From Mobula hypostoma (taxonomy: Eukaryota): 64,000 nucleotides of DNA. Below, piece after piece: positions 1 to 57,759 of this stretch. The notes beneath the pieces are model-generated. The model saw only the letters and a program-made list of their open reading frames with translations, ran no database searches and had not been told where the DNA came from. Where the stretch lies: positions 44,146,001-44,210,000 of the forward strand of contig NC_086097.1 of NCBI RefSeq assembly GCF_963921235.1. Direction: 5' to 3'. Position numbers and translations under genes: made by a program. Numbering within the stretch: the stretch's first letter is position 1; every line of letters starts with the position of its first letter.

Positions 1-3000
1 CATCTGATGGGGGAAGACTGGTGAGCAAGTCCAGGGCAATGTGGGACCAGGGTCTCTTGCGGATAGACAGGGGTTGTAACAGACCAGCGGATGATCGGTT
101 AGAATTCTTGCCTTGAGCACGGACCGAGCAGGCTGAGACAAAGTTGCGGATGTCATCTCTCATGGAGAACCACCAGAACCGCCGACTGATGAAGGCCTGA
201 GTACACTTGGTTCCAGGATGACAGGATAACCGGGAGGAATGATCCCACCGCAATACTTGTGAGTGGACAGAGCTGAGAACATAACCACGGTTAGTGGGGC
301 ATTGACTAGGGGCTGCCTCGCTCTGTTGAGCAGCTTGCACAATGGATTCAATGTCCCATTGTGCTGCACCCACAAGCAGGGAGGATGACATTGGGTACCT
401 CAGGGGTCTCAGAGGAGGGAAATCTTCGGGAGAGGGCATTAGGTTTTCCATTCTTGGAACCGTGGCCAAAGGACAGAGTAAAATTGAATCTTGAGAAAAA
501 CAGGGACTACAAGCTTGATGGGAGTTGAGATGCTTGGCAGGACGGATATATTTTGGATTCTTGTGTTCAGTCCAGACCAAGATTGGCACCTTGGCTCCTC
601 CAGCCAATGCCTCCAATCCTCCAGAGCTAGCTTCACAGCCAGCAGCTCCCAGTTTTTGACATCTTAATTCTGCTCTGTGGGAGTGAGGTGGAGAGAGAAG
701 GCAGCACAGGGGTGTACCTTCTCATCCTTGGCCGAGTGCTGAGAGAGAACAGCTCCTACACCGATGTCAGATGCATCCACCTCCACAATGAACTGCCGGT
801 TGGTGTCGGGTTGAATCAGGACAGGGGCAGAGGTGAAACGTTCCTTCAGGTCAGAGAATGCTTTTTTAGCAGCAGGGGATCAGGAGAATCTGACAGATCA
901 GGTAAGAGCAGAGAGTGGTGCAGCCAGTGTACTGTAATCACTGAAGTAGCGACAGAAGTTATCGAAGCCCAAGAAACGTTGCAACTCCCGACGAGTCAAA
1001 GGTTGGGGCCATCCGACTATCGCCTTAACCTTCTATTGGTCCATGTGAATGGAACTGCCTGAAATTACATACCCCAGGAAGGAGACGGTATTGCAATGAA
1101 ACTCACATTTCTCAGCCTTCACAAAGAGCTGGTTCTCCAGAAGGCACTAGAGAACTCTGCAGACGTGCCCTGTGTGTTCAGCAAGGGACTTAGAAAAAAA
1201 ATCAAAATGTCGTCGAGTTACACAAAAACAAATTGGTTCAGCATGTCCCTGAGAATGTCATTTACCGGGGCTGGGAAGACGGCGGGTAGACCGAATGGCA
1301 AGATCAGATACTCACAATGGCCTGAAGTGGTGCTGAAGGCCATTTTCCACTCGTCCCCTTTGTAGATGCGGACAAGATGGTAGGAATTACGGAGATCAAG
1401 CTTGGTGGAAACTGAGGCTTCTTGCAGTAGTTCAAATGCTGAGGTCATGAGCAGAAGAGGGTAACGGTTCTCAACAGTGACTTCATTCAGTCCCTGGTAA
1501 TCAATGCATGGACGCAAGGAGCCATCCTTCTTTTCAACAAAGAAAAAAGACTAGCACCAGCAGGGGAAGAAAATGGCCGGATAATGCCTGCAGCCAGAGA
1601 CTCTTGAATATACTTTTTCATGGCTTCTGTTTCAGGTACAGACAGGGAGTACAGGCTGCCACTTGGGGGAGATATACCAGGCAAGAGGTCAATGGTACAA
1701 TCATATGGACGATGAGGCATCAGGGAAGCGGCCCAGGACTTGCTGAACACAGCCATGTATTCAGGAGGGATGGCACTAAGGTCTGGAAATTCCTCGGGAG
1801 GATCTGGGCTTGGAGACAAGGGGATCTGAGCATGGCGGAGGCAGTGAGAGTGACAGAATGGGCTCCAGCCTACAACCTTGTGACTGAGCCAGTCAATGTG
1901 GGGGTTGTATTTAGCTAACCAGGGATGGCCCAGGACAATGGGAGCTTGACTGTTAATGATGGTTGCCAGATAAACTGAGACTCATCGGGGCCATGACATG
2001 GGTGATGTTAGCCAGTCTCTGACTGTTCAAGGCATTGGCCATCAATGGTGACTGGAGAGCAGACCTGGGTAATCCCCACTGGGCAGCCAAGCCAGAATCG
2101 ATAAAACGCACCTCCGAACCTGAATAGACCAAGATGGAGACTGCTCGCTGTTGGACACCCCACTCCAGAGAAGCAGGTATGAGATTGAGTGGTGTCGAGG
2201 AGGGTCGGACAGGGGTCACACTCACCAATACTCCTCGTCCTACTGGTGAGCGCTGGCTTTTACTGGGCAGGTGGCGATAAAGTGGTTTGGTTGGCCACAG
2301 TACAGACAGGAACAGGTGCTGATTCTCCTGTGTCTTTCAGTCGGCATCAGGCAGGTACAGTCAACCTTCGTAGCTTTGGGTTCTGGAACAGGAATTGTAG
2401 ATGGGGGCAAACGGTAGGGCAATGTAGACCGACGAGGAGCTTGGAACTCACCCAGTGCCCCCAGGGACCTTCTGCAACCCCTCCCTCTGTGGCACTGCTG
2501 AAGGCGACAATCAATACGGATGGCCAAATCCACCAGGGCTTCAAAGGTGGCAGGAAGGTCCTGGGTGACCAGCTCATCTGTGATGTCTTCGGAGATGCCA
2601 TTCAGGAAGGTGTCGTACTGTGCCTCCGAGTTCCAGCCACTGGAGGTACTTGGATTTCGGCGTAATCCAACACAGATCTGCGCCCCTGGTGCATGAGCAG
2701 CATTTCACAGGCAGTCTCTCTCCCATGTTTGGAGTGATCAAATACTTTTCTCATCTCCTCAAAAAATAACTGAAAACTACTGCAGAAAGGGGAGCCTGCC
2801 TCCCAGACGACTGTTCCCCGTTCTCTCGCCAGACTGGACAGTTGGGTGATAACATAGGCTACCTTGGCTCGATTAGACAGAAATGTTATTGGTTGCAATT
2901 CAAAAATGAGGGTGCACTGGGAAAGAAAAGAGTAGCAGGTACCAGGCGCACCTGAGTACTGCATTAACTCTCCAACATTTTGACCATATTTCCCCCCCAA

Positions 3001-3352
3001 GAGGACTAGGAGAACAGAACTGTTGAAGCAACCCAAATACCTATGGATGCAGGTACCGGGCTCACCCGAGTACTTTTCTGGAGGAGGTCAACGGGGCTCT
3101 TGGATGGGAGAAGCATGCGAGGATGCAGATGGCAGGGCGGAAGATGCAGTCGCAGAGTGTTGATGGGTACTCTGGGACAACTGGAGTGACTGAGTCTGGG
3201 CCATGAGATCGGCTACATTGCCAGGAAGTGACTCCACTGCCCTGAGAGCATACTCCAGCTGGCTCTGGTGTCTCCCCAGTATCACTCCCTGTTGTTCCTG
3301 GGCAGCTCTCAGATGATCAGGGTCTGCTGGATCTATTCTGGCTAGAGTGTAC
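1..3352 (-). mobile_element. Decayed Ty3/gypsy LTR retrotransposon, sushi/chromovirus type; internal region runs off the window start
   Basis: Fragmented gag with CCHC knuckle CLYCGQPNHFIATC. Protease ILVYSGSE (catalytic D lost). RT RPCIDY..LN / [13 protein letters not shown] / DEWKMAF / PFGL. RNase [12 protein letters not shown] and LALEDWRHWLE. Start of integrase. Many frameshifts and stops. Confidence 0.92.
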
Positions 3353-13958: not shown

Positions 13959-14726
13959 TAGTTACGGTTGACATTCTGAAGGATTTCTTCTTCCTCCTCT
14001 TCTTTATAGAAAAGCTCTCAGGGTGGCGAAGATGATTTGTTTCCACTATGGCCATGAGGTCACCGAAACTAGCCAGTGTGGGAACTATAATCTCTTCCCC
14101 CGGTGGGACAGGGGATCTCTGACAAGGCAGGCCAGTCAGCAGATGCAGAGATGGTGTGCCCCTCCCCCGCTGACGCAAGGCAGGTGTACAGATGATGCAA
14201 AGAGCTGAGCTTCATAACATCATATTATGATATTATATGATATCATATAATATCATATCAAATCTTCCTGATTTGTGCATTGTGGGTCAGTGAGGAGGTA
14301 GCATTTCTTTAAATGCATCTCTGAGCACATCCCAGAATCTTTTCCCCTGTCTGGTAATTTGCACAGTGACAGAGTTTAGAACGGAGTTTCTATTTCAGGA
14401 ATGTGGTGTGAGGCATCTGAGTAGCACAGCTTGTTCGACATTGCTGATCGAAAGTGCTCGGAGCCTAATGCCGGGAATAGTGGCCTTGGCAAAGAATACT
14501 GGCATCGATTTGCTTACCCTTCCACTGAATTTGCAGGATTTTGTTGAGACAGTATTTTTCCTGCTGTATGGAATCCAGTTTGAAGCAATTCAGGAGAGAA
14601 ATGAATGCTGCCAATAGACTATCTCTGTCAAAGCGGAAGTCTTGATCTTCAGGCATGCTTTTTCCATAACCAAACAAAGGCATTGAAGGTGATGATAAAT
14701 TTCAACATCAATGTCTCACTTCACTG

Positions 14727-15418: not shown

Positions 15419-15517
15419 AAAGTACACCTACTAAAGCACGTGAGCATGAATGCTTGTTCAGAAAAGCCTAGTTTGCGGCTGTCTGTTCCCTCCCCCCCCC
15501 CCACCCCCACCATATCT

Positions 15518-15880
15518 GAGATTATCATCTAGTTCTGTGGTATCAGTGAGATTATGACCTAGTTCTGTGGTATCTGTGAGATTATGACCTAGTTCTGTGG
15601 TATCCATGAGATTATGGCCTTGTTCTGTGGTATCAGTGAGGTTATGACCTTGTTCTGTGGTATCAGTGAGATTATGACCTTGTTCTGTGGTATCAGTGAG
15701 ATTATGACCTTGTTCTGTGGTATCAGTGAGATTATAGCCTTGTTCTGTGGTATCCGTGAGGTTATGACCTTGTTCTGTGGTATCTGTGAGATTATGACCT
15801 TGTTCTGTGGTATCAGTGAGATTATGGCCTTGTTCTGTGGTATCAGTGAGGTTATGACCTTGTTCTGTGGTATCCGTGAG
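15518..15880. repeat. 30-bp minisatellite, about 12 copies
   Basis: Unit TATCAGTGAGATTATGACCTTGTTCTGTGG repeats in exact 30-nt register with no spacers. Confidence 0.97.
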
Positions 15881-16103
15881 ATGACAAGTTGCAACAAAAG
15901 AAGCAAGAATCTGGCAACATTCAATCTGCTGATGAAGTTTGAGAACTGGAATGTCAGAATCTTCATGGACGATCCCAACAGCGATACATCTGAGCTTCAT
16001 TATCATGGCCCAGGGACTCAATTGCTTTGAAATCAACATTATCACACTGGATTACACAATACAGGCAGGATAATGGGTCGGTTAAAAAACAAGGTGATTG
16101 GTA

Positions 16104-18744
16104 TGCAGAGTTTCACAAATAAGACCATATGAGGCATTTTATGTTTAAGAAAAACTGTAACAACTCATTTTTTGTACTCCAAAGCCAGAATGCAAAGCAC
16201 AGTAACCGAACTTCACATAGTTACATTGCCACATCAGACCATCCCCTTAAAGTGAACCCCAACTCAATATGGGGGGTTGAGCATTATGTATGTTTCCACC
16301 AGTTACGTTTTCCTGCACAGGCATCCCCACAATTCACTAAAACTGGCATTATGAGCCTGTCCAGAGCTCGGATGAGCTGCCCAGCTCCAGTCCTGTGTTC
16401 CATGGGTGGAGGAACAGCAAATTCCTCTGGCTCATCCAGAGGTGTGTTGACATGTTCATGGTCACATCGTGATGGCAGGGGCATGGTAATAATCCACCAA
16501 AACTTGGGGGGCCGGCTTAAGGTGACCTACTGAAATATATTCCGGTTTACCCTTCTTATCTATGATAAAAAGACTTCTCTCTCCGATCCAAAATGTGGCT
16601 ATTGATAAGGGGGCCTAAGGGAATGTTGGTGTGCACCTTGGAAGATGAAAACAGATGAGACAGAGTGTAGGTCAACAGGAACCCCAGAGTGCAGTAGGCC
16701 ATGATGGGGGGTAGGAATTGAATTTACTGAGGAGAGTGGAACACTGCTGAGAGGCCAACCAGGCGGTCGTGGTGTCAAGAATAAAATCACCTGGTACTCG
16801 TAACAGCTGCCCGTATACCAACTCAGCCGTGGATGGCTGTCCACCCTCTTTTGGAGCTGTTCTGAGCCCCAGCAGGACCCACGGGAGATGATCAACCAGA
16901 CAACCCAGTCTGGCACTTAGCAGGGTTAATAATCAAGCTGTGTTGTCTTAAGCCCTCGAAAAGTTTGTGGAGGTGAGATACGTGTTCAGATGTGGATCCA
17001 CTGGCAACGAGTAGGTCATCCAGGTAAACAAAAAGAAAATCTGAGTCTTTTAATACAGAGTCCATCAGCCTTTGGAAAGTCTGTGCTGCATTTTTCAGCC
17101 CAAACTGCATGTGCAGAAACTCAAAAAGGCCAAACGGGGCTATTACAGCCATTTTGTGAATGTCCTCCCAGCACACAGGCACCTGATGATAGTCCCTAAC
17201 TAAGTCAACTTGGGAAAAAATTCACTTTCCAGCTAAACGTGGTGAAATGTCTTGGATGTGAGGGACTGGGTAACAATCAGGGATGGTGACCACGTTAAAG
17301 CATCAGTAATCCCTCCATGGGTGGCAACCACCATTGGACTTCGGGAGCATATGGAGGAGTGAATCCCTGAGGCTATTCGACCGGCGTACAATGCCGGGTT
17401 TTTCCATGTTGGCAAACTCAGCCTTCGTGGTTGCCACCTTTTCTGGGTCGGGTCTACATGCCCGGGCATGGACTGGTGGGCCGGTTGTAGAAATGTGGTG
17501 CTTGACCCCATGTTTTGTGACGGTAGTGGAGAATGTGGGCTTGGTGAGGTTTCGGTATTCGCCCAGCGGTGAAATAAACTCACCTGTGCTTGCGCTCGAC
17601 AGAGTTGTTGTGGGGAACTTACTGGAGGAAGAGGGTAACGTCCCAAAACCCTTGACATCCACAAGCCAGCAGTTCTTAAGGTTGTCTAATAGTCCTTGGG
17701 CACACAGGTAGTCTGTACAGAGCAGAGGTCCAGCCACTTTAGCCAGGACAAAGTTCCATGTGTAACGTCATCCACAGAATCAGAATGTCACCTGTTGTGT
17801 CCTGTAGGTCTGGATCCTGCTGCTGTTAGCAGACTCCAGCCAGGTTTCTTTGCCTTCTCATCAATAGGCGATGGTGGCAGCACATTCACTTCAGCACCCG
17901 TGTCACACAGGAAGCGTTGCTCTGAATGGGTGTCCATAATGAACGGTAGACGACCCTGGCAGCTGGAACCCATGGTGTTCACAGATCTCTGATGTCCCAG
18001 TGTGCTGGCGCTGTTGAAGCTGCAGGGTGGTCAGTACTTCCTGGTGTTCGTACCAAAGCAGGCATGGTGAAAAGACAGGCCTGGTGTTGTCTGTTTGGAC
18101 TGGGCTTTATTGAGGCAGGGAAGGGAGGAGGAATTATGCACCTCTGGCTGGCTGAGTGTAGACTGGCCAACATTTTACCAAGCTCCCTATAGTTTATTGC
18201 GAGTGCACTAGCAAGGGCTATGCGAATTTGATCAGGCATTTTCTTCATGAAGATCTCTTTAAAAATAAAGCAAGGATGGTGATTTCCCGGGAGAGGCATT
18301 AGTTCTGATGGTTTAGCATCGCTGAGGCCGGGCAAGGAGAGAAGTTGCTTGGCGTGCCCAGACTCCGATAGTCCAAAAGTCAGTAAAAGGTAAGTTTTCA
18401 GCGTTTGGTATTTATCGTGTTCAGGTGGGTACTCAGGCAGACTCACCACTCCCGCGATGCTACCATATTTGGTGTCGTCAGTGGAAATTCCTCACAGAGC
18501 GAATTGGGCCGTGGCTTGTACAAACCAAGCAACAACATTTTGTTTCCAAAACTCCAGCAGTTTCAAAACGACTGTGTTGGCCGACATGTTCAATAACTCA
18601 GGAATTGTCCTAGAGTATCGGGGTTACCAATGTAAGTTTTCGCAAATAAAACAAAGTGAGGCATTTTATGTTTAAGAAAAACCGTAACAACTCATTTATT
18701 GTACTCAAAAGCCTGAGCACAAAGCACAGTAACAGTACTTTACA
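16104..18744 (-). mobile_element. Decayed CsRn1-like Ty3/gypsy LTR retrotransposon with internal deletion
   Basis: Matching LTR segments at about 16104-16319 and 18631-18744. PBS TGGTAACCCCGA (tRNA-Trp-like) at 18618-18629. Protease FLCDTGAE; RT PFGLFEF / AAQTFQRLMD / YLDDLL; integrase tail LRPPY. Confidence 0.85.
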
Positions 18745-19626
18745 ATATTTTTATTAATTTGTTTTGAAATAATAAACTTCTCTGGCAAGTAATCTAAATA
18801 ACTAAAATTAAACAGTAAATAAGAGGTGAAGAGTCCTGATGAAGAGTCTTGGCTCAAAACGCTCTTTTCCATAGATGCTGCTGAGTGTTAGGTGTTTCCA
18901 AAAGAACAGGGAGGGAGGCAAAAGAGGGTGTGGCATTGCTAATCGGGGTCGTGTCCTGGCTGCAGAAAAGGAAGAAGCCATGGAAGGATTGTCTACTGAA
19001 GGGGGCAATAACCCCACTGGGTGTCTTTTATAGACCACTCCCCAATAGTAACAGAGACATCGAGGAGCAGATAGGGAGGCAGATTCTGGAACAGTGCAAT
19101 AATAATAGGGTTGATGTGATGGGTGATCTTGACTTTCCTAAGATTGACTGGCATCTCCTTAGAGCAAGGGGTTTGGATGGGGTGGAATTTGTTAGTTGTG
19201 TTCGGAAAGGTTTCCTGATGTAATATGTAGATAAGCCAAATAGAGGACAGGCTGTACTTGATCTGGTATTGGGAAATGAACCTGGTCAGCTTTCAGATCT
19301 TTTGGTGGGAGAGCATTTTGGAGGTAGTGATCACAATTCTATCTCCTTTACCATAGTGCTGGAGAGGGATAGCAGCAGACAATTTGGGAAAACATTTAAT
19401 TGGTGTAGGGGAAAATATGATGCTATTAGGCAGGAACTTGGGAGCATAAACTGGGAACAGATGTTCTCAGGGAAATGCACAGCAGGGAACATTTGCATGG
19501 AGTTCTGCATAGGTACTGTATGTTCCATTGAGGCGGGGAAGGATGGTAGGGTAAAAGAACCATGGTGTACAAAGAATGTAGAAAATCTAGTTAAGAAGAA
19601 AAGAAAAGCTTACAAAAGGTTCAAGA

Positions 19627-19864
19627 AACATACATCAAAGTTGCTGGTGAACGCAGCAGGCCAAGCAGCATCTATAGGAAGAGGCGCAGTCGACGTTTCA
19701 GGCCGAGACCCTTCGTCAGGACTAACTGAAGGAAGTCCTGACGAAGGGTCTCGGCCTGAAACGTCGACTGCGCCTCTTCCTATAGATGCTGCTTGGCCTG
19801 CTGCGTTCACCAGCAACTTTGATGTATGTTGCTTGAATTTCCAGCATCTGCAGAATTCCTGTTG
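19627..19864. mobile_element. Palindromic Penelope-like-element terminal fragment with 16-bp TSD
   Basis: Perfect inverted arms 19627-19723 and 19734-19830 with a 10-nt spacer. TSD aaaaggttcaagaaac at 19614-19629 and 19865-19880. Confidence 0.85.
19734..19769 (+). ncRNA. Minimal type I hammerhead ribozyme motif (mirror copy on the minus strand at 19688-19723)
   Basis: AGTC-CTGACGA-AGGGTCTCGGCCT-GAAA-C-GTC^GACT: stem I AGTC/GACT, CUGANGA and GAAA boxes, GUC triplet, palindromic ACGT stem III. Confidence 0.7.
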
Positions 19865-22800
19865 AAAAGGTTCAAGAAACTAGGTACTGTCAGAGCTCTA
19901 GAAAATTACAAGGGTGCCAGGAAGGAGCTCAAGAATGAAATTAGGAGAGCTTGAAGGGGCCATGAGAAGGCTTTGGTGAGCAGGATTGAGGAAAACCCCA
20001 AGGTATTCTACAAGTATGTGAAGAGCAAGAGGATGAGCCGTGTGAGAACAGGACCAATCAGGAGTGAGAGTGGAAACGTGTGCATGGAGTCGGAGGAGGT
20101 AACAGAGGTACTTAATGAATACTTTGCTTTAGTATTCACCAGGGAAAAGGACTGTGGGGATGTATAAGAATGTATAAATAATTGTAATTTTATACATATA
20201 AAAAAATGGAAAAGGTTATATGTGTGAAAAAAGTACATGATAATTGTGAACTCCTTATCCAAATAAAAATAAAATTAAAAAAAAAAAGGAAGAGGATGAT
20301 CTAGAGCTTTTGAAAGGTATTAAATTAGATAAGTCACTGGGATCAGACGAGATATACCCCAGACTACTGTGGGAAATGAGGGAGGAGATTGCTGAGCCTC
20401 TGGTGATGATCTTTGCATCATCAATAGGGATGGGAGAAGTTCCAGAGGATTGGAGGGTTGCAGATGTTGCCCCCTTGTTCAAGAAAGGGAGTAAAGATAA
20501 CCTAGGAAATTATAGTCCAGTGAGTATTTCTTCAGTGGTGGGCAAGTTGTTGGAGAAGATCCTGGGAGGCAGAATTTATGCACATCTGGAGAGACATAAT
20601 CTGATTAGGGATAGTCAGCATGGCTTTGTCAAGGGCAGGTTGTGCCTTACAAGTCTGATTGAATTCTTTGAGAATTTAACAAAACAAATTGATGAAGGTA
20701 GAGCTGTGGATATAGTGTGTATGGATTTCAGTAAGCCATTTGGTAAGGTTCCCCATGCAAGACTCCTTCAGAAAGTAAAGAGACCTTGCTTTGTGGATCC
20801 AGAACTGTTGCCCACAGAAGGCAAAGGGTGTTGTAGATGGTTTGTATTTGGCATGGAGGACAGTGACCAGTGGTGTTCACAGGGATCTGTTCTGGGATCC
20901 CTCTTCTTTGTGATTTTTATAAATGACCTGGATGAGGAAGTAGAAGGGTGGGTTAGTAAACTTGCTGATGACACAAAAGTTGGGGGTTTTGTGGATCATC
21001 TGGAAGGTCGTCAGAGGTTACAGTGGGACATCGATAGGATGCAAAACTAGGTTAAGAATTGGCAGATGGAGTTCAACTCAGATAAGTGTGAGGTGGTTCA
21101 TTTCGGTTGGTCAAATTTGAAGACAGAATATAACATTAATGGTAAGATTCTTGGCAGTGTGGAGGATCAGAGAGATCTTGGGGTCCATGTCCATAGGACA
21201 CTCAAAGCTGCTGAGCAGGTTGACAGTGTGATGGCCTTCTTCAACCATGGAATTCAGGTCAAGAGCCGTGAGGTAACGTTAAAGCTATATAAGACCTTGA
21301 TCAGACCCCATTTGGTGTACTGTGTTCAGTTGTGGTATCCTCATTACAGGAAGGATGTAGATACTATAGAGAGAATGCAGAGGAGATTTACAAGGGATAT
21401 TGGCTGGATTGGAGAGCATGCCTTATGAGAACAGATTGAGTGAACTTGGCCTTTTCTCCTTGGAGTGATGGAGGATACGAGGTGACCTGATAGAGGTGTA
21501 TAAGATGATGAGAGGCATCGATTGTGTGTGTAGCCAGGAGCTCTTTTCCAGGGCTGAAATGCCTAACACGAGGCGGCATAGATTTAAGGTGCTTGGAAGT
21601 AGGTACAAGGGGGATGTCAGAGGTAAGTTTTTCACACAGAGAGTGATGGGTGCGTGGAATGCACTGCTGGTGACGGTGGTAGAGGTGGATACAATGGGGT
21701 CTTTTAAGAGACTCTTTACATAGGTACACGGAGCTTAGAAAAATAGAGGGCTATGTGGTAGGGAAATTCTAGGCCGTTTCTAGAGTAGGTTGCATGGTCG
21801 GCACAACATTGTGGGCCGAAGGACCTGTAATGTGCTGTACATTTCTACGTTCTATGTTCTATGTTCCAAAAGAATGAAATAACAGTTGAAGTGTAAATCC
21901 CTGCAGTTAATTACCTCCTCAGTCTCTTGGTTATTGTCATGGTTGTTGGTTGTTCTTGTTAGAGAAGCCAAAAATCTCTTCACAAGTGCCATTCATGGGG
22001 GCTTTCATGCAGGCCATAAGATGTGAACACTTTGAATCCACTATTGCCTGAGATCTGACTGTTTCTAGTGAGGCTTTGTCCAAGAAGAGCAACCTTGTGG
22101 AATCCTTGACACCTTCAACAATCGTCTGTTGATGCTGATGCTTCAGGACCAGGTTGATGGAGACAACAGAGCAGGTTAGTTAGTGATCCATCGTGCAATC
22201 ACAAGTAGCCATCATGGCAAGAGCAGTCTGGATGTGCTTGTACTCCAAAGTATAATCTAGCAGGTGCTGGTACTTGGACCAGGATTATTGCCTTGATTCC
22301 TTTTGCTCAATTTTCTGATGAAACAGTACGGTTGTTGTAACTCAGTGCTCCAAAGAAGGACCACGTTGGAGCTAGTCATCTCCACTTCCTTCGTGTTAAT
22401 CATGCCTGGGCAGAAGTTTACGTCCTTCCTCTCCTTCAACTTGAAGCTGATAAGGAGTTAAATTTAGTTATTTAGATTACTTCCCAGAGAAGTTTGGATT
22501 ATTTCAAAAAAATTTCATTAAAACATTGTTTTGACACGCACTCAATCATGCCAACTTCCGGGGACTGGACACTCTGACTCTCTGGAACATGGATAGCTGG
22601 CACAGCCCCTTGAAAGATTCAAGACTGTCCCACTAGTTTCCAGTCATGTTTTGGGTGCTGACAATTGAGTCTTTAAAGAGCACCTGAACAGAGCCTCACT
22701 GCTCAACCAAAGATATCGTCTGGCCTTGCCTTTTGTGCTCAGTTCTCAATCCAGTTTTATTCCGTTCCTCGATCCTTGCCTCAGACACTACAGCATTTGG

Positions 22801-29025: not shown

Positions 29026-29794
29026 TTAGATAGGTGTATAATCCTTTCCATAGTTTGTAAACTTATTCATGCTTGGAGATATAATTTTAACTGAAAGGTC
29101 TTCATTTTTGTCTTGGAGTAAATACCTTCTTTGCTTCCAGAGGAGATGTCGATACTTAGCATTTGCCAGCCACATTTCACACCTGGAGAAGAAGATGATT
29201 CCTGTAGTTCCCAGGATCACAAGACACGTCAATAACCCAAGTACTGTAAAACAGATCAGTTGACTGCTGTTGAACAGAGAGCCAGATGTGTGGGCGGTTT
29301 CTTTCCTTGTGATCTTGATCAAATCACTTTCTTGTTGTGGTGTTGATTTACGAGAGCTGTGTAGCACAGAATGAAAATACTTGCTATGACTGATCCATTT
29401 TGCTCTTGGATGCTTGGATATGTTCTGCTTCGAGTCATGCTTAAAGTTCTTAAATACTTTTTCTTGGCAGATTTCTCCTAAATAATCAGGCAAACATGTG
29501 CAATCAAAGCCGCCCTCGGGACGATCGTGGCATGTGCCTCCATTTTGACATGGATGGTTAAGGCAAGATGTGACTCTATATTCACAGGATTTGCCAGTGA
29601 ATTCTTTAAGGCAAAGACAACTGAAGCTGGAAACCAGATCTGTGCAGGTTCCATGGTTGGCACAAGGGTTTGGATTACAATTATTGATGCTTATTTCACA
29701 GAAGTCCCCAGTAAAACCAGGCAAACATAAGCAGTAGTTCTTAACTGCAGTCCTACTATCTTCAAAGCAACTTCCTCCATTCTGGCAAAAAGGT
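29026..29794 (-). CDS. dlk1: DLK1 coding exon 5 (EGF4-6, juxtamembrane, transmembrane, cytoplasmic tail, stop)
   Basis: ttcag|A CCT TTT TGC CAG, within ORF 29026..29844. PFCQNGG...QLICFTVLGLLTCLVILGTTGIIFFSRCEMWLANAKYRHLL...EDLSVKIISP resembles the DLK1 TM and tail (QAICFTILGVLTSLVVLGTVGIVFLNKCETW...EDLAVNIIFP) rather than DLK2. Confidence 0.96.
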
Positions 29795-30289
29795 CTGAAG
29801 GCAAAAAATAAGTAAGATATTGAATAGCATTGAAACATGGACACTAATTCATATAAAATCCATAGTTAACACCTAAACAATAGTATATGCTATTGTTTTA
29901 ATGGTGTTATTGCCTTAAAAAATGTCAATTTAGTTTTCCTGTGCCTGGGTCATTTGATCACCTAGATATATTAAAACTGGTAAAGCATGAGGATGTGTGA
30001 ATGCATCTATAAAGGCAACATTGTTTTTGCCTGTAAATTTTGCATTTAACTATATCCATATTTCTGAAATAAAGGACCTCACCGAATGGGGCAGAAACAG
30101 GTAAAGGGATATCTAATCTAATGTTAAAAGATTATCTGCTAGCCTTGCTCCTTTCTGTATTATTACCACAGAAACTGTAAAACCTCTCGGCCTGGTACAT
30201 CAATCTAATACCATGTTTCTGATTAATTGTAAAAAAAATCTTATATTAATGGTCTGGTACACCACTATTTCCAGTGACTTTAATATTTT

Positions 30290-31360: not shown

Positions 31361-31669
31361 ATGTATTTTTGATCTTGTTATCAGTAACTCCAAGGGCAAT
31401 CTGAACATTATGTAATGAAGTTCTAGAATGTGAACGAAAGAACTCAGATCCTGAATCCATTACAAAATAGCATAAAATGGGCAGGCAAATCTGACTATAA
31501 ATTGCACTGACTGACATACTGGTGAGGGCATTGATCTTTGCACCAGTTACCCCTGTGAATGCATGCAGAGTAGACAGTTTGTGATTTTGCATTGATTTAA
31601 CAATAATGATATCATGATTAAACTCAACATCTGGTCAGTGCCTTCTATTAAAGTCACTTCCGTCAATCA

Positions 31670-31829
31670 CAAACACAAGAAAATCTGCAGATGCTGGATA
31701 TCCAAAAGCAACACACACAAAATGCTGGAGGAACTCAGCAGGCCAGGCAACATCAGGGTGAAGGGTCTCGGCCCAAAACATCAACTGTTTGCTGCCTGGC
31801 CTGCTGAGTTCCTCCAGCATTTTGTGTGA
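31670..31829. mobile_element. Palindromic Penelope-type terminal fragment, older copy
   Basis: Inverted arms cacacaaaatgctggaggaactcagcaggccaggca around a degenerate hammerhead core (tgaagggtctcggcccaaaac). Confidence 0.75.
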
Positions 31830-31998
31830 GAGACTTTGGTCAATACCCATTCAACAGCAGGGACGATATAGCCCACTCCCAGTCAATACTACATCCACTG
31901 CTGACTGATTAGTTGCTGATTGTTATCATCATACAGTTGCCGCAATTCTACAAGAGTCTGTTACTTCATAGGGTTCTGTATGGGGGTGGGTACAGATA

Positions 31999-39090: not shown

Positions 39091-39402
39091 AAGCAACACA
39101 CGCAAAATGCGGGTGGAACGTAGCAGGCCAGGCAGCATCTCGAGGAAGAAACACAGTCGACATTTCGGGCTGAGACCCTTCGTCAGGACTAACGGAAAAA
39201 AGAGCTAGTAAGAGATTTAAAGTGGGAGGGGGAGGGGGAGGGGGAGGGGGAGGGGGAGATCTGAAATGATAGGAGAAGACAGGAGGGGGAGGGATGAAGC
39301 TAAGAGCTGTGAAGTTTATTGGCAAAAGGGATACAAGGCTGGAGAAGGGGGAGTATCATGGGACTGAAGGCCTTGGAAGAAAGAAAGAAAGGGAGGGGAG
39401 CT
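39091..39402 (-). mobile_element. Penelope-like element 3' terminal fragment with near-intact hammerhead motif at 39155-39190
   Basis: Minus strand reads AGTC-CTGACGA-AGGGTCTCAGCCC-GAAA-T-GTC-GACT, preceded by a pyrimidine-rich region. Confidence 0.75.
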
Positions 39403-46770: not shown

Positions 46771-48855
46771 CTGCAACAGAGAAAAGAATCATCATATTCT
46801 GGGAATGTGTGGCTACTGATTGTCGGCTATGAAACAGGATACTAACTCTTACTCTGTACAGTAATGCAATTTATTAACATTAGCAGTTAGTGGGATATAA
46901 GCTCCCTAGAAATGGTACAATGTCTTTAATATTTTATGTCCAAGACAAGGAGCCTGCTGCATCATATATTCTCTTCAGTCTCTTGCCTGCATTAAGGTCA
47001 GGACTTTAAATTCCCCTTCATAAGTAGAAGTTCCAGAATTACTTTTATCTCTCCTTTTTGATCGATGATCAATGTGTGCACTGCAGGCAGGTTGGCAGGG
47101 TTCCAGCCTACTGTTCTAGATACACCCTTACTCATGATTTATGCCCAGTGAGAATAACCTTTAAAAATGAATGATCAAATGACTTAGAGATGAATTGCAC
47201 TGTGATAAATGGCAATGTTATTCTTTATTTGGTAGTGTTATACCTGAAAGTGTACTGATATTTTCACTAAATACAAGAAGTGGAGCAGGGGTTGGAGACC
47301 ATGTTTGACTCTTGATAAGAACATCCGTTAGCTAATGAGCACACATTTCAGCAACAGTGATTCTTTCTTCCTGACTAGCCTTGCTGATCATTTTTTTTTC
47401 AAACTGCCACTTCAACGAGGTTTTATTTCTGCTTCCTTGGGAAATTTGTCATTTACAGGAGTCACCTAGCACAGGGAACTATTCAGTAGATATGGGACAG
47501 AAAGTTAACAATGAGCATTTCTGATCTGGCTATTGTTCATGATTGCACTTAATAAAAAAAAACACAAATGAGGAGCTGGAGTGGCCCTTCAGACCTTTCA
47601 GTAAACCCATGACTGGTCTGATTAATAAAATGTTAGTAGATCACTCTTAGATTTCAACTCATTATTTCCATCTCTTGGATAGAGCTTAGCACATCCTCAT
47701 TTAACTGAAGTAGCCTATCGAGAATCTCTGCTTTAAAAATATTCACAGAATCTGCTCCTTCCACTTATGAGAAAGAGAGTTACAAATACTCATAAGAAAA
47801 AGTGATTGTTTCCCATGAGAAATAGACCTTGTAAAGAAACTAAGATCATGTATAGAAAAGCCTGACATTATTGTAATATCTAGCTGTCTACATGGAGAGC
47901 TTTCACTCTCGTTCAATATGTCTAAATTCTATACTCATTTGAACAATTGAGGGCTAAGCTCTATACAAGAGGTGGAAATTAGGAGAGCTGAGTGATCTAT
48001 TAATACTTTATTTATCTCTACTCACTTTTTGGGATGTGGGCTTCACTGGTAAGGTCAGAGTTTATGCCCTTTGCCCCTGAGTTGAGAAGGATAAGCCAGC
48101 TCTTTGACCTTCTGCAGTTCTTCTGGTGAAGGTATCCCTTCACTACTGTGGAGTGGAGTGCTAATTCCGTTAATGAAGGAATGGCAATATATTTTCAAGT
48201 CAAGATGATATGTGATTTTATAGGAACAATGCTACAAATACTCCTTACACAAGTTGATTCCAGGAACATCTGTAAGGAACATGCTAAAGAAATAAAGGAA
48301 CAAAGATCAAGGAGAATTTTCATATGAACGTGCATGTGGAAATGAACTTCTGGCGGATATACAGTATGACTGTCAAGTGCTGTACCTTCAGCAAAAGAGC
48401 CAAGGAAATGTCCCTAAACTGCTGGAGAACAGTGCAGAAAGAACAGTTGCTGTTTTCTCCTGGTAGGGATTAGTTTTTAGTTCCAAGTGCTCCTGCCACA
48501 TTTTGTCACCCTGCAGCCTTATCCTTCAATCTCTTTGAATTATGGAGGACAGCATGTATATAAATGTTTCTCTCCAGCAGACTTCATCATGATCTTCATG
48601 ACTCCAGTATTTCTACTTTTTTTTAATGTTTCTGAATGGTACATATGATTTTTTTTGTGTTCTATCGTTGAGCAGCAGTGAACCATCTCACTGGCCTATC
48701 AGAGTTCTCTTTGGGAACTAGTTGACTTGATCCGCATTTCTGACCTGGCTATTATTCACGATTGCATTTAATTTTAAAAAAAATGTCAGAGATTAGTTAT
48801 CAGGTATAATCTTCCTATAGGATTTTTCTCAAGAATCCTTGAATAATACAACCTT

Positions 48856-54432: not shown

Positions 54433-54856
54433 TGCTGCTTCCTTGCCGGGGGTTTATACACTTGTAACAGCCTAGGCAGTAGTTAGAAACATTTGTAATT
54501 CAGATCGAAATCGCAGTAATACCACGTTCGTCATCCCGCACAGGGGTCGTCCGTCCGTGAGATGATAAAGTTATATATTCCCACGAGAATTCGCGTCTCA
54601 ATGTCCCAGAAATAAAAACACCGGTTAAGATAATTTGGGTTTTAAATATGCAGGAGCGCAGGAGGGCAACAGAGTTTGCCTATAAATAAGAAAGAAAAGT
54701 GGGACTCTATTCTCAGATATTTAAGATGCGGTTAACCGCAACCAGTTATTTAAATACATTCGTGGAATGGGACAGGTAATAATTTATATCCTCCTTTGTT
54801 CGTCTTATTCGGAGGAGGGACTGATGAATCACGATTAACAACAGCAATAGTGAAAG

Positions 54857-54917
54857 ACACATCAAAGTTGCTGGTGAACGCAGCAGGCCAGCCAGCATCT
54901 GCAGAATTCCTCTTGTT
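54857..54917. mobile_element. 61-bp Penelope-type insert with 14-bp TSD upstream of dlk1
   Basis: TSD agcaatagtgaaag at 54843-54856 and 54918-54931. Sequence matches the two ends of the 19627-19864 element. Confidence 0.85.
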
Positions 54918-56351
54918 AGCAATAGTGAAAGGGCGGTTTACCTGAAGCTTGACAACCTTTTTCAGTTCCTGTGTGAGTAAAGGTGGTGTGAGAAGGGTGC
55001 TGTTGCGCCCGAACATTTTTGTTTAAAGTTCTTCGCTGGACTAGTATTATCTTACCTGCTGCCCAACACCGCCAAACAATGACCACAGACCAATCAATGA
55101 GGCCATATCGTCTGTCCAAACGTGAGAGTGCACCCCGAAAGACGCATGCGCCCACTCCAACCGGCGCTCTATATCAAAGCAAAGCCACTTTCTGAAAGGG
55201 TGCTTCGTGCCAGACATCAGTTATCTTGACAGCAAGTAAGAGAAAAATTGCTGAGGGCGTGACCCAATTAACGCTTTTAAAATTAGAAGGCGTTTTTGTA
55301 GTGGAAATGATTCTCTTTATAAATAAAAGCAATCTGCGTAAGACAATCACCAAGAAATCGGGAAGAAACTTCAGCACACAGAAAGTGGCGTCAATGTGCA
55401 GCTCGCTACATAAGGAGAAGCCACGGCAAGTAGCAGGGCAGTGTATGAAGCGACTGATACATGAAGGAAAACGGGCATTTCCGATGGGCAATAAACACCA
55501 ACCTCGACTGCTTGAATATCACGTGCTGTTTATGTGCCATAGGATTCGCATATATACCAATCTACATGAGGCGAACCTTAGACCTATTAGGAATAATCTT
55601 ATGCTGAGTTTTCCCCGTCACCTGTTTCTTTTTGTCAGTGATCACAAATCCGAGTTTTACTGTTATCAAATCATACATCATTTCCCTTTCTGTGTTTACC
55701 TATTCAATCATAGGTATCACTCTGGTCATATTTTTAAGCAGTTTACTTCATTTTTATCTGTCAAAATAATTAGCTGTAAGCATCACAATTCACTTTCTCT
55801 CTTAAAGCCTGCAGTCCCGCAAATCCCAGTGATTCCCCATTTTTGTGAGCTGTCGTCCTGCAGGACATGACGCTTGATTCACAGTCAGAAGGATGCGAGG
55901 TTAAGCCCCGATCCAGAGATTTGTACTCAAATATCCAGGCTAACGCTATAAAACAGTGATGCGGACTTCTGTCCCAATGAGCTGCCAATGGACGAGCGAT
56001 TAAACTGCAGTCCTTTTGTTGCTCATATGGAGAATATGCTTGACGAGTATGATAGTTATCCCTCATGGTGAGAAAAAAAATAAGGTAATACAGTAATCAC
56101 AGCACTGTTTGTGAACACACACTCAGTTCTAATTGGTTCATATGGGGGAAACGATGACTACTCTTCAAAAACTTTTTATTGAATATGAAGAGCTTTGGTA
56201 CATTCCGAGGTCATAAATGATTCTGTTGGCATTGGTTTAATATTTTACATGTGTACCAAGATACAGCGGAAAAGCTTGTCTTGCAGTACCGTTCATACAG
56301 ATCAACCCATTACACAGTGCACTAAAGTGGAGCAAGATAAAATAATAACAA

Positions 56352-56566
56352 AGCAAGAGAAAATCTGCAGGTGCTGTAAATCCAAAGCAACGCACACAAA
56401 ATGCTGGAGGAACTCAAGAGGCCGGGCAGCTTCTATGGAAAAGAGTAAACAGTCGTCGTTTTGGGCCGAGACCTTTCAGCAGGAGTCCTGATTACGTCGA
56501 CTGTTTACTCTCTTCCACAGATGCTGCCTGACTTGCTGAGTTCTTCCAGCATTTTGCGTGTGTTGC
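56352..56566. mobile_element. Palindromic Penelope-type insert with 14-bp TSD
   Basis: TSD taaaataataacaa at 56338-56351 and 56567-56580. Imperfect inverted arms; hammerhead cores degenerate. Confidence 0.8.
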
Positions 56567-57759
56567 TAAAATAATAACAATGCAGATTTAAGTGTAAAGG
56601 CTACAGCGAAAGTATATACAAATATAACGTTTAAATGTATAATTCACTGCAGCACAAACGGCATTTCCTGTGTTCATCAGTGACATAGCTAATGTTATCA
56701 CGGACCTCAAAATATGGCAATAAATATTGCTGTAAAATAGGTTTTCACATTCCAATCAGTTCGTCGTTTCTATTTTCACCGTTCACTCTAGCCTTTCATG
56801 ATACGAGAACGCTAACATTATTTTACAGAAGTTTCACCGTTAGGACAATTAATTGCAATCTCAATAGTGGTAACTCGGAAGAGAAAGGTTTGACCCACAC
56901 AAAGGAAGTCGTGCCAGATCACTTACTCTAGAGCTCGTGAGTCCAACCACAATCCGGATACCAAACGCTAGTGTCTTTGTTGGGCTACTCTCATTCACGT
57001 GGGAGCTCATCCACGTACCTATTTACAAAAAATAGATAGACATTTTCCAGAAGAACCACAGTAACAAGGCCGGAGATCACGAAGGAAAAAAAACAATTTT
57101 GATACACCTAAATCTCTTTAGCCCAGCCTTGCTGGGAAATAAACTAAAATTGTAATTGTGTTGTAATAATCCAGCTCAGTGGATCACGAATCGACTGATA
57201 CGCAGTCTGCTTTAGGAATTGCAAAGCACATTGCCTTCTTAAGTCAAACACCGTGGGTAATGCAACTAAACAATCTGCCGCACGAGCATTTCACCAGCTA
57301 CTGCAGCCAGAAGCTCGTACAAGACAGACACGTCCATCATTCTTTCCTTGCTTAGAGTACTGAGATGTGGTACCACATCAAAGCTCACACTACATTAAGT
57401 CAATGACCGAGTATTAGCCTCGTTTAATTCATCTTTCTTGTTTTTTAATCCAATTTATGTTCAGTTTGACAATAAATACTGGCGCCACTGCAATGTTGTG
57501 ATTTTCCCCCGTAAATTCGTCCTTTCAAAGTCAATTTGCATCTGACAGCTGACAGTGAAGGGCACTGAGACGTTTATACGAGGTATAAGTACAAGGAGTT
57601 GATTCCAAAATGTCCAGTTGCTTCTTAAAACTCATAGCTTTTTGTTTTGCTGCTAATGTCAGCAATCTACTTGATAATTATTTGATCAAGTTGTATTATT
57701 ATTTCCTCATTTTCATAAAGTAGTGGTTAAATTTGTCCAATAAAATTAGCTTGCATCCT

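Follow-up and report, generated by a model that had tools for sequence, protein, structure and literature searches.

The 64,000-nucleotide stretch of Mobula hypostoma DNA analysed here (the window) contains a 235-bp insertion flanked by a 16-bp target-site duplication (TSD) in an old CR1-type LINE, 9.1 kb past the DLK1 stop. Most of it is a palindrome: 19627-19723 and 19734-19830 match as perfect inverted repeats of 97 bp, separated by 10 nt, as the initial annotation had described; pairing reaches 104 bp if one mismatch is allowed. The palindrome folds with a z-score of -26, and none of 200 shuffles folds as well. The features of the locus are as follows.

18885..21860, plus strand: old, broken CR1-type LINE, host of the insertion (bounds approximate)
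19614..19629, plus strand: left TSD copy, 16 bp
19630..19735, minus strand: element end (pLTR) in inverted orientation and lacking the tail; it extends from the inner 3' limit as far as 12 nt upstream of the hammerhead
19688..19723, minus strand: minimal hammerhead motif on the inverted arm, with cleavage predicted between 19692 and 19691
19724..19735, minus strand: "spacer" together with 2 nt more; pLTR sequence from further upstream in the family itself, occurring in the inverted arm only
19734..19735, strand not applicable: 2-nt microhomology where the two arms join at the apex, common to both, as seen by comparison with the family's upstream sequence
19734..19769, plus strand: minimal type I hammerhead motif, predicted cut after 19765
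19734..19830, plus strand: element end in direct orientation, truncated 5' at the hammerhead edge
19831..19864, plus strand: 34-nt tail, direct arm only, ending at or near the family 3' end
19865..19880, plus strand: right TSD copy, 16 bp

The two copies of the direct repeat (19614-19629 and 19865-19880) match without mismatch, against a top score of 8 among 150 random position pairs, and deletion of 19630-19880 yields a continuous ORF2-like frame across the site. Both results bear out the earlier report of a perfect 16-bp duplication inside a CR1. The host LINE, whose family we take to be CR1, retains an RVT_1 domain downstream. The insert itself has no ORF; an open frame of 213 aa that runs through the palindrome (19224-19865) was taken as chance, and its CR1 part had no Pfam match.

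The unit is asymmetric, with the tail following the right arm only. The left arm's outermost 3 bp fall within the duplication. The inverted and direct segments overlap by 94 nt. The 10 nt at the centre, previously read as a spacer, are not neutral filler but family upstream sequence carried by the left arm. Similar sequence occurs in a copy at 39 kb of the window, and in public contigs (from four of 24 listed runs, compared over 19712-20155 only) the loose-end consensus before 19734 matches the spacer in 98, 46 and 17 contigs of X1, X5 and X15, respectively; the raw-read run X21 yielded 0 reads. The spacer region contains a pyrimidine tract ending CAG-TT, which by its letters would resemble the 3' end of an intron. 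A branch-point-like word, a pyrimidine tract and an AG lie just before helix I in the loose-end consensus (agreement about 0.5), and one of two Mobula gene models is compatible with use of that AG as an acceptor. In D. virilis Penelope, a retained spliceosomal intron ends at helix I of the hammerhead.

Each arm carries a hammerhead motif, on opposite strands and only 10 nt apart, in agreement with the initial annotation. On the plus strand the motif comprises a 4-bp helix I, the core, an extra A (A19745) after A9, and a helix II of 4 bp, compared with 7-8 in Schistosoma. The catalytic core (C3-A9, G12-A15.1 and U16.1-H17) is present together with helices I and II. Metazoan retrozymes are head-to-tail tandem units with a classical type I hammerhead; the head-to-head arrangement and the loop-less helix III of the focal unit rule against this class. 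Positions 15.2-16.2 are loop-less and form the palindrome ACGU, suited to an intermolecular (dimer) helix III. This feature and the extra A agree with the Penelope-type minimal hammerhead, which has a loop-less palindromic helix III (PMC4209133); the initial annotation had likewise named the Penelope type with its palindromic stem III. The 10.1-11.1 pair is G.U in both focal arms rather than the usual G-C, which is found in the copies at 39 kb and 18.8 kb; G10.1-C11.1 is typical of metazoan PLE min-HHRs but stands outside the descriptor (PMC4209133). The one active-dimer arrangement scored has a predicted energy of -9.5 kcal/mol, compared with -28.3 for the best co-fold. An Rfam search did not recover the motif: the whole window gave no match at the gathering threshold, and at E<=10 the region around the site gave nine weak matches, best to generic hairpin models and none to a hammerhead family.

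The window contains further copies of the same repeat, including the following four.

31652..31844, minus strand: sister insertion with two arms, older, within the final intron of DLK1
39091..39400, minus strand: longer single tail-less copy in a DLK1 intron
54843..54931, plus strand: tiny sister insertion with a perfect 14-bp duplication
56338..56584, minus strand: older sister insertion of the same plan, with its apex at the hammerhead edge and the hammerhead decayed

All four two-armed copies, the focal one included, carry the tail on the direct arm only (ending at the equivalents of 19860-19864), and their inverted arms end at the equivalents of 19825-19838. Their centres and arm lengths all differ. 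Clear duplications of 14-18 bp flank three of the four, compared with a maximum score of 8 in the null. The 56-kb copy has an 18-bp duplication with one mismatch around a tail-less inverted arm and a tailed direct arm that are identical at 62 of 74 positions; its direct arm, like that of the focal copy, begins at +2. The 54.8-kb copy consists of a tail-less inverted arm of about 40 nt and a 24-nt piece of tail, with no overlap between arms and no hammerhead. The arms of the 31-kb copy are identical at 38 of 39 positions and are flanked by a possible degenerate duplication (12/16). The 39-kb copy has a hammerhead motif, with G10.1-C11.1, and some 200 nt of pyrimidine-rich pLTR upstream. The single arms at 39 kb, 44 kb and 18.8 kb lack a duplication (scores of 7, 5 and none, within the null). 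No A tract was present at the 3' ends of the window copies examined. In the public contigs of X1, 203 leave the element after 19864 and 80 after 19860, into unrelated flanks, and other joints in public contigs link an antisense end at 19735 to 19802, 19827 or 19830.

This architecture and the hammerhead motif make it most likely that the repeat family is a Penelope-like element. L1 twin priming also yields a TSD of about 15 bp, an inverted 5' segment and microhomology at the junctions, all of which the focal insert shares; an L1 twin-primed insertion ends in poly(A), and its inverted and direct segments abut. The focal insert, unlike these, has no poly(A), a near-full overlap of its segments and a fixed tail offset, and an L1-type origin was rejected on the missing poly(A) and the 94-nt overlap. 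The published descriptions of Penelope-like elements include an inverted 5'-truncated pLTR, a tail of 30-40 bp and a TSD (Craig et al. 2021, PMC8557442; Arkhipova et al. 2013, PMC3846280), and a repeat of 34-37 bp (Schostak et al. 2008, PMC2377424). As in EN+ Penelope-like insertions (PMC3846280; PMC8557442; PMC2377424), the focal site has an inverted, 5'-truncated copy placed head to head with a direct copy, a variable junction between them, a tail (34 nt) on one end only, a hammerhead motif in the pLTR, a short TSD, no poly(A) and an AT-rich target. It differs from the insertions described there in that both copies are cut to about 100-130 nt, no ORF lies between them and the result is a near-perfect hairpin; the duplications are also longer, at 14-18 bp (16 at the focal site) compared with 8-10 bp in the rotifer examples. 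The insertion plan is the Penelope-like structure set out in PMC3846280, PMC8557442 and PMC11167929.

Searches for the element's coding region gave no link to an RT plus GIY-YIG ORF. DNA pattern scans for an RT plus GIY-YIG link in non-animal viral, genome and metagenome contigs found no matches in five of five. A protein search for a Penelope ORF returned four candidates, among them two Mobula gene models that hold the translated repeat; a representative-library search returned three matches, the third an unrelated repetitive protein; and a search from the 39-kb copy found none among 1896 candidates. In the literature we found no report on Penelope in Mobula, or on a Penelope-like hammerhead with a SINE in shark.

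Considered together, the data indicate that the locus is very probably a 235-bp TSD-flanked insert composed of a tail-less inverted and a tailed direct end of what is most likely a Penelope-like element, with the palindrome probably made during integration. Because the centres differ among the window copies and among the contig joints, the palindrome is likely to be made anew at each insertion, rather than moved as a fixed unit. Of the earlier statement that it was "mobilised as a TSD-flanked unit", the landing in one event stands, but a preformed unit does not fit the variable centres.

We infer a two-primer, end-joining path. The element endonuclease would nick both strands 16 nt apart, and each freed 3' end would prime reverse transcription on uncleaved element RNA. 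The tailed arm would come from an outer start site, the tail-less arm from an inner one some 30-35 nt further upstream. At the inner site the DNA end would pair with the RNA: the last 10 nt of the left TSD are identical at 9 of 10 positions to the reverse complement of element 19828-19837, a match that arises at any of 10 offsets by chance in 147 of 200000 trials. From the letters alone it may represent primer-template pairing; by eye, none of the other two-armed copies has a like match. Synthesis of both cDNAs would then end prematurely close to the hammerhead's 5' edge, the 2-nt microhomology would serve to join them, and fill-in would leave two identical arms with the two hammerhead motifs as passengers.

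A comparable system is the Poseidon element PAc of the green anole, for which cutting and extension of both strands in vitro is described; its reverse transcription uses uncleaved RNA and has two start sites, one on either side of the tail (Frangieh et al. 2024, PMC11167929). In the focal unit, too, two 3' ends are separated by the tail; a PAc RT start lies 111-118 nt after stem II begins, the focal tail ends at about +120, and an uncleaved template fits focal arms reaching 5' of the cleavage position (PMC11167929). Unlike PAc as described there, the focal unit has no ATG at stem II, and its 9/10 primer match differs from the PAc start site, which is not homologous to the cut DNA. In PMC8557442 the formation of inverted repeats in Penelope-like elements is called a still undefined step.

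PMC3846280 favours self-priming on an antisense template, argued from palindromes at inverted junctions. The element and product would be the same, with the inverted arm made by snap-back on a small junction hairpin. In the sense RNA the 27 nt surrounding the apex do form a hairpin, and in cDNA a weak one (-3.4 kcal/mol), and six of the 11 arm starts in the window fall within -12 to +9 of the hammerhead start. Fold-back of a tail-less cDNA, however, cannot template the 34-nt tail, nor can it produce the non-overlapping inverted arm and direct tail of the 54.8-kb copy, and a second primer is suggested by the 9/10 match found at the left junction. We regard self-priming as rather unlikely. As a single locus the focal insertion has little weight; the ray genome carries a great many such stumps of this abundant repeat. 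As a class, minimal, unmutated stumps are clean records of how Penelope-like elements build inverted repeats, and a census of their junctions could separate two-primer joining from self-priming and test whether an intron end gates the hammerhead.

A palindromic MITE or DNA transposon ends in symmetric terminal inverted repeats and has a constant interior; the one-sided tail and variable centre argue against it here. The related proposal of a non-autonomous, MITE- or SINE-like fixed unit, transcribed or excised whole with an antisense arm that controls the ribozyme, would account for the single duplication that brackets the insert and for the +2 start shared by the focal and 56-kb direct arms. 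Depth in the bin 19712-19726 is also non-zero in both DNA runs, which does not show that contigs cross the apex. Such a unit is nevertheless improbable: centres and arm lengths differ in four of four copies, the tail makes the ends asymmetric, other joints occur in public contigs, and a perfect 97-bp hairpin would be a poor template for reverse transcription.

The identity of the arms had been attributed to a very young insertion or to gene conversion. Zero mismatches set only a weak limit on age, and "very young" is an overstatement: no difference in 97 bp still allows up to 3.0% divergence, or about 2e7 generations at the rate given for the epaulette shark (PMC10587355). Conversion between the arms is not needed, since those of the older 56-kb copy have diverged (62/74). 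An older insertion with arms held identical by conversion or cruciform repair would be consistent with the 38/39 identity at 31 kb, with a very stable DNA hairpin that the arm pair could form (-136.7 kcal/mol), and with the minority variants at 19772 and 19826, which are present in both focal arms whereas the family majority differs (60-96% by run). These variants, however, occur often in the family (reaching about 40% and 21% of X1 depth), and their sharing is expected if both arms derive from one template subfamily; the duplication is also perfect and all six CpGs per arm are intact. We therefore consider arm conversion highly improbable. Perfect palindromes are a known class of artefact. 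An assembly or library fold-back artefact is the least credible explanation, close to negligible: PMC8557442 reports assembly trouble with such structures and no listed contig spans the apex, yet an artefact would not account for a 16-bp duplication, a host frame regained once the insert is deleted, family upstream sequence in the spacer or diverged sisters of the same plan. Among the contig pieces listed for 19712-20155, none spans the focal junctions and no orthologous empty site was seen.

If the locus were read through, the hairpin is predicted to bury both hammerheads and keep them silent. In the modelled fold the stem I probability is below 1e-36 and exposure of the ribozyme would cost 66-68 kcal/mol, in line with the sequestration suggested by the initial annotation. 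The same hairpin would be an ordinary ADAR substrate. Feeding of ADAR, also anticipated there, is plausible and hinted at for the family, but editing of Penelope is already on record, among edited repeats that include Penelope in lizard and palindromic Harbinger in frog (Porath et al. 2017, PMC5625713) and in Xenopus tropicalis (PMC10636886). The likeness to the lizard and frog repeats in those reports is a self-folding or inverted-repeat RNA as substrate; the difference is that here one probable RNA run, a single contig set, hints at A-to-I editing at the level of the family, and nothing ties editing to the focal locus.

A broader reading, which we advance as speculative and unlikely to hold as a whole, is that such stumps would preserve a trace of the second half of the Penelope cycle together with a built-in switch based on splicing and ADAR. 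Both nicked strands would prime on uncleaved RNA at sites bracketing the tail, the second aided by target-RNA pairing, and both cDNAs would tend to end where the intron 3' end and the hammerhead core fold into a small hairpin. Palindromic stumps would supply dsRNA by way of which ADAR would edit, and may disable, the family's hammerhead core. In unspliced RNA the small hairpin would mask the ribozyme, so that splicing would license cleavage. In the isolated 36-mer, helices I and II have predicted pair probabilities of 0.65-0.95; with 12 upstream nt added, the predicted hammerhead helix probability is 0.01.

The palindrome recognised in the initial annotation is real: over 97 bp, positions 19627–19723 and 19734–19830 are exact reverse complements, separated by 10 nt and enclosed by a perfect 16-bp duplication (19614–19629 and 19865–19880) that scores 16, against a maximum of 8 among 150 random position pairs. 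Its predicted fold reaches −223.8 kcal/mol (z = −26), equalled by 0 of 200 shuffles. Excision of 19630–19880 in silico gives an unbroken LINE ORF2-like frame spanning the insertion site, with an RVT_1 domain downstream, which identifies the unit as a genuine insertion within a LINE that is itself old. CR1, the family named earlier, is the presumed identity of this host. An AT-rich stretch at ∼20160–20290, with an A tract at its end, also interrupts the LINE and is likely a second insertion.

The right arm alone is followed by a 34-nt segment, 19831–19864, previously overlooked. This tail closes the family's 3′ end near 19860–19864, where 203 contigs (after 19864) and 80 contigs (after 19860) of the public DNA run X1 pass into long unrelated flanks. 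Over its final 10 nt, the left duplication agrees with the element at 9/10 positions, a level reached in 147 of 200,000 trials with random window 10-mers at 10 offsets.

Arm and tail match six other places in the window, three of them two-armed (31.7, 54.8, and 56.3 kb). In all four two-armed copies, the tail lies on the direct arm and ends at 19860–19864 in focal coordinates, while the inverted arm ends at 19825–19838; the tail is likewise missing from the three single arms. Three two-armed copies have duplications of 16, 14, and 18 bp (one mismatch), and the best candidate in the fourth matches at 12/16. The centres, as arm starts relative to the hammerhead start (19734), are as follows.

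Focal copy: inverted arm −12, direct arm +2
56.3-kb copy: inverted arm +21 (0 if read by eye through an 18-nt deletion), direct arm +2
31.7-kb copy: inverted arm +9, direct arm +51
54.8-kb copy: inverted arm +55, direct arm +107, arms without overlap

Among the public-contig matches listed (15 of 66 rows), further joints connect 19735 to 19802, 19827, and 19830. Centres thus differ between copies, contrary to the proposal that the palindrome was mobilised as a unit. Arm starts fall within −12 to +9 in 6 of 11 cases, divergence possibly shortening the alignments of older copies; the single 39-kb copy is left out of these six because it runs past the reference. The family is abundant, as shown by 51,149 (X1) and 34,429 (X5, also DNA) aligned contigs, some of which fall on the LINE flank; these totals indicate abundance rather than a copy number.

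The spacer is not neutral filler. Contigs exiting before 19734 (98 in X1, 46 in X5, and 17 in the probable RNA run X15) yield a consensus with agreement of about 0.5, whose final 12 letters correspond, once reverse-complemented, to the 10-nt spacer plus 2 nt, and the 39-kb copy continues upstream in the same way. The left arm is therefore an inverted copy reaching 12 nt further upstream, and both arms have 2 nt in common at the apex. At 19724–19735 and 39191–39215 (minus strand), helix I is preceded by a word resembling a branch point, a pyrimidine tract, and two AGs 5 nt apart, the second AG ending exactly at +2, the start of two direct arms. By sequence, this 12-nt stretch resembles an intron 3′ end, which we treat as a lead only; in Drosophila virilis Penelope, an intron ends at helix I of the hammerhead (PMC4209133). 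In a protein search, the translated focal arm matches two Mobula gene models, of which one is compatible with acceptor use of the upstream AG and the other reads through. In these models (P0001, P0002: a STARD3NL isoform and an uncharacterised protein) the translated repeat ends at the tail-less boundary, a possible exonisation or annotation error.

Any mechanism has to accommodate a single insertion event, two discrete 3′ ends, and variable centres. In the focal insertion, the apex and the left junction both show microhomology, and the two arms reach 5′ of the predicted hammerhead cut, which means that the template had not been cut. Staggered nicks 16 nt apart in the target probably supplied two primers on the element RNA, at outer and inner start sites; both copies would then have terminated early, joined through 2 nt, and been filled in. 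Self-priming remains a rival for copies whose arms meet at the small hairpin close to the edge of the hammerhead; it can, however, neither supply the tail nor explain the non-overlapping arms of the 54.8-kb copy. With regard to priming at two sites, PMC11167929 describes an anole element able to cut both strands and extend them, using uncleaved RNA and two start sites that bracket the tail.

Typical features of Penelope-like elements include a 30–40 bp tail and, at the 5′ end, an inverted 5′-truncated copy (PMC8557442); inverted terminal repeat units (pLTRs) occur with a 31-bp tail and 8–10 bp duplications, self-priming being argued (PMC3846280); D. virilis Penelope has a 34–37 bp repeat (PMC2377424); and inverted pLTRs are a recognised peculiarity (PMC8969392). 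The focal copy resembles the elements of the first three in its inverted pLTR, one-sided 34-nt tail, and duplication. This architecture is already known and, judged by it and by the minimal hammerhead, the focal unit is most likely a Penelope-like insertion reduced to a minimum and carrying an inverted pLTR. The one defining feature not found, in DNA pattern scans of non-animal collections and in protein searches, is a link of the family to an RT plus GIY-YIG ORF, and our literature search found no paper on this ray repeat family.

A hammerhead core had been noted on each strand. A descriptor scan of both strands gave six matches, three with full core and helix I: the two focal arms and the copy at 39190. 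Rfam returned no hammerhead in the window (gathering threshold) or around the site (E ≤ 10). In the isolated 36-mer, helices I and II form with probability 0.65–0.95, whereas helix III requires a second molecule, paired through ACGU. The single active dimer arrangement scored is far less stable, at −9.5 kcal/mol versus −28.3 for the best co-fold. Pair 10.1–11.1 is G·U in the focal copy and G-C in two sister copies. With 12 upstream nt, a predicted alternative hairpin masks the core (helix probability 0.01). Helix I has probability <1e-42 in the full palindrome and <1e-36 in a transcript ending just past the motif, and forcing the motif costs 66–68 kcal/mol on either strand, so that the suggested sequestration of the ribozyme stands as a prediction. 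Published work defines the minimal hammerhead, with no monomer and low dimer activity, and reports pairs on opposite strands 100–700 bp apart (PMC4209133); the anole hammerhead requires the protein (PMC11167929).

We favour an insertion young relative to the host LINE, given six intact CpGs per arm and the perfect duplication; the closest match to the LINE within the window stands at 80%. "Very young" overstates the case: zero differences in 97 bp allow divergence up to 3.0%, which a shark rate of 7e-10 per generation (PMC10587355) converts to about 2e7 generations. Gene conversion, offered for the identical arms, is not needed because in the 56-kb copy the two arms have diverged to 62/74 identity.

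X15, presumed to be RNA from an individual different from the DNA runs, shows A-to-G at 5.9% (19782) and 6.2% (19784) versus 0.4–0.9% in the two DNA runs, on 11 and 18 contigs perhaps from one expressed copy. ADAR prefers a 5′ U. If 19826 is set aside (G already predominates there in the family), only two of 23 adenosines follow a U, namely these (chance of both raised sites being so preceded, 0.004, by a test picked after the data were seen). One X15 contig reads core adenosines 19759–19761 as G, turning GAAA into GGGG. The excess and this contig hint that ADAR edits RNA of the family. Against this, X15 also exceeds the DNA runs in a non-editing change at 19783 (28% versus 11 and 21%), and it has no T-to-C row. 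Depth in X15 is zero in bin 19712–19726, so the signal is not tied to the focal locus. In published work, ADAR sites are depleted of upstream G and lizard Penelope is massively edited (PMC5625713), as is that of Xenopus tropicalis (PMC10636886).

The exon at 29029–29796 (minus strand) shares 93% identity with DLK1 from Hemitrygon akajei; together with the Mobula gene-model matches, this makes a myliobatiform ray the likely host. The DLK1 coding exons are as follows.

54432–54358, minus strand, coding exon
51171–51076, minus strand, coding exon
46775–46638, minus strand, coding exon
41636–41490, minus strand, coding exon
29793–29029, minus strand, coding exon

The focal insertion is located 9.1 kb beyond the stop codon, hence outside the coding-region introns, and five minus-strand AATAAA words separate the two. 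DLK1 introns do contain the 39- and 44-kb single arms and the 31.7-kb two-armed copy, which are therefore likeliest in pre-mRNA. At 54843–54931, a perfect 14-bp duplication marks a family insertion of 61 bp, which lies ∼410 bp ahead of the first coding exon and may fall within the promoter or 5′ UTR region.

Elsewhere, 15517–15882 is a tandem array of ∼30-bp units, 90–93% alike, with open frames on both strands. Diverged inverted repeats unrelated to the family (47620–47690 and 47953–48016; 77% over 71 bp, ∼260 bp apart) are possibly a MITE relic. Broken frames at 631–3100 and 17233–18491 (minus strand) look LTR-retrotransposon gag/pol-like by eye, and 14226–14257 is an AT-rich perfect palindrome of 32 bp.
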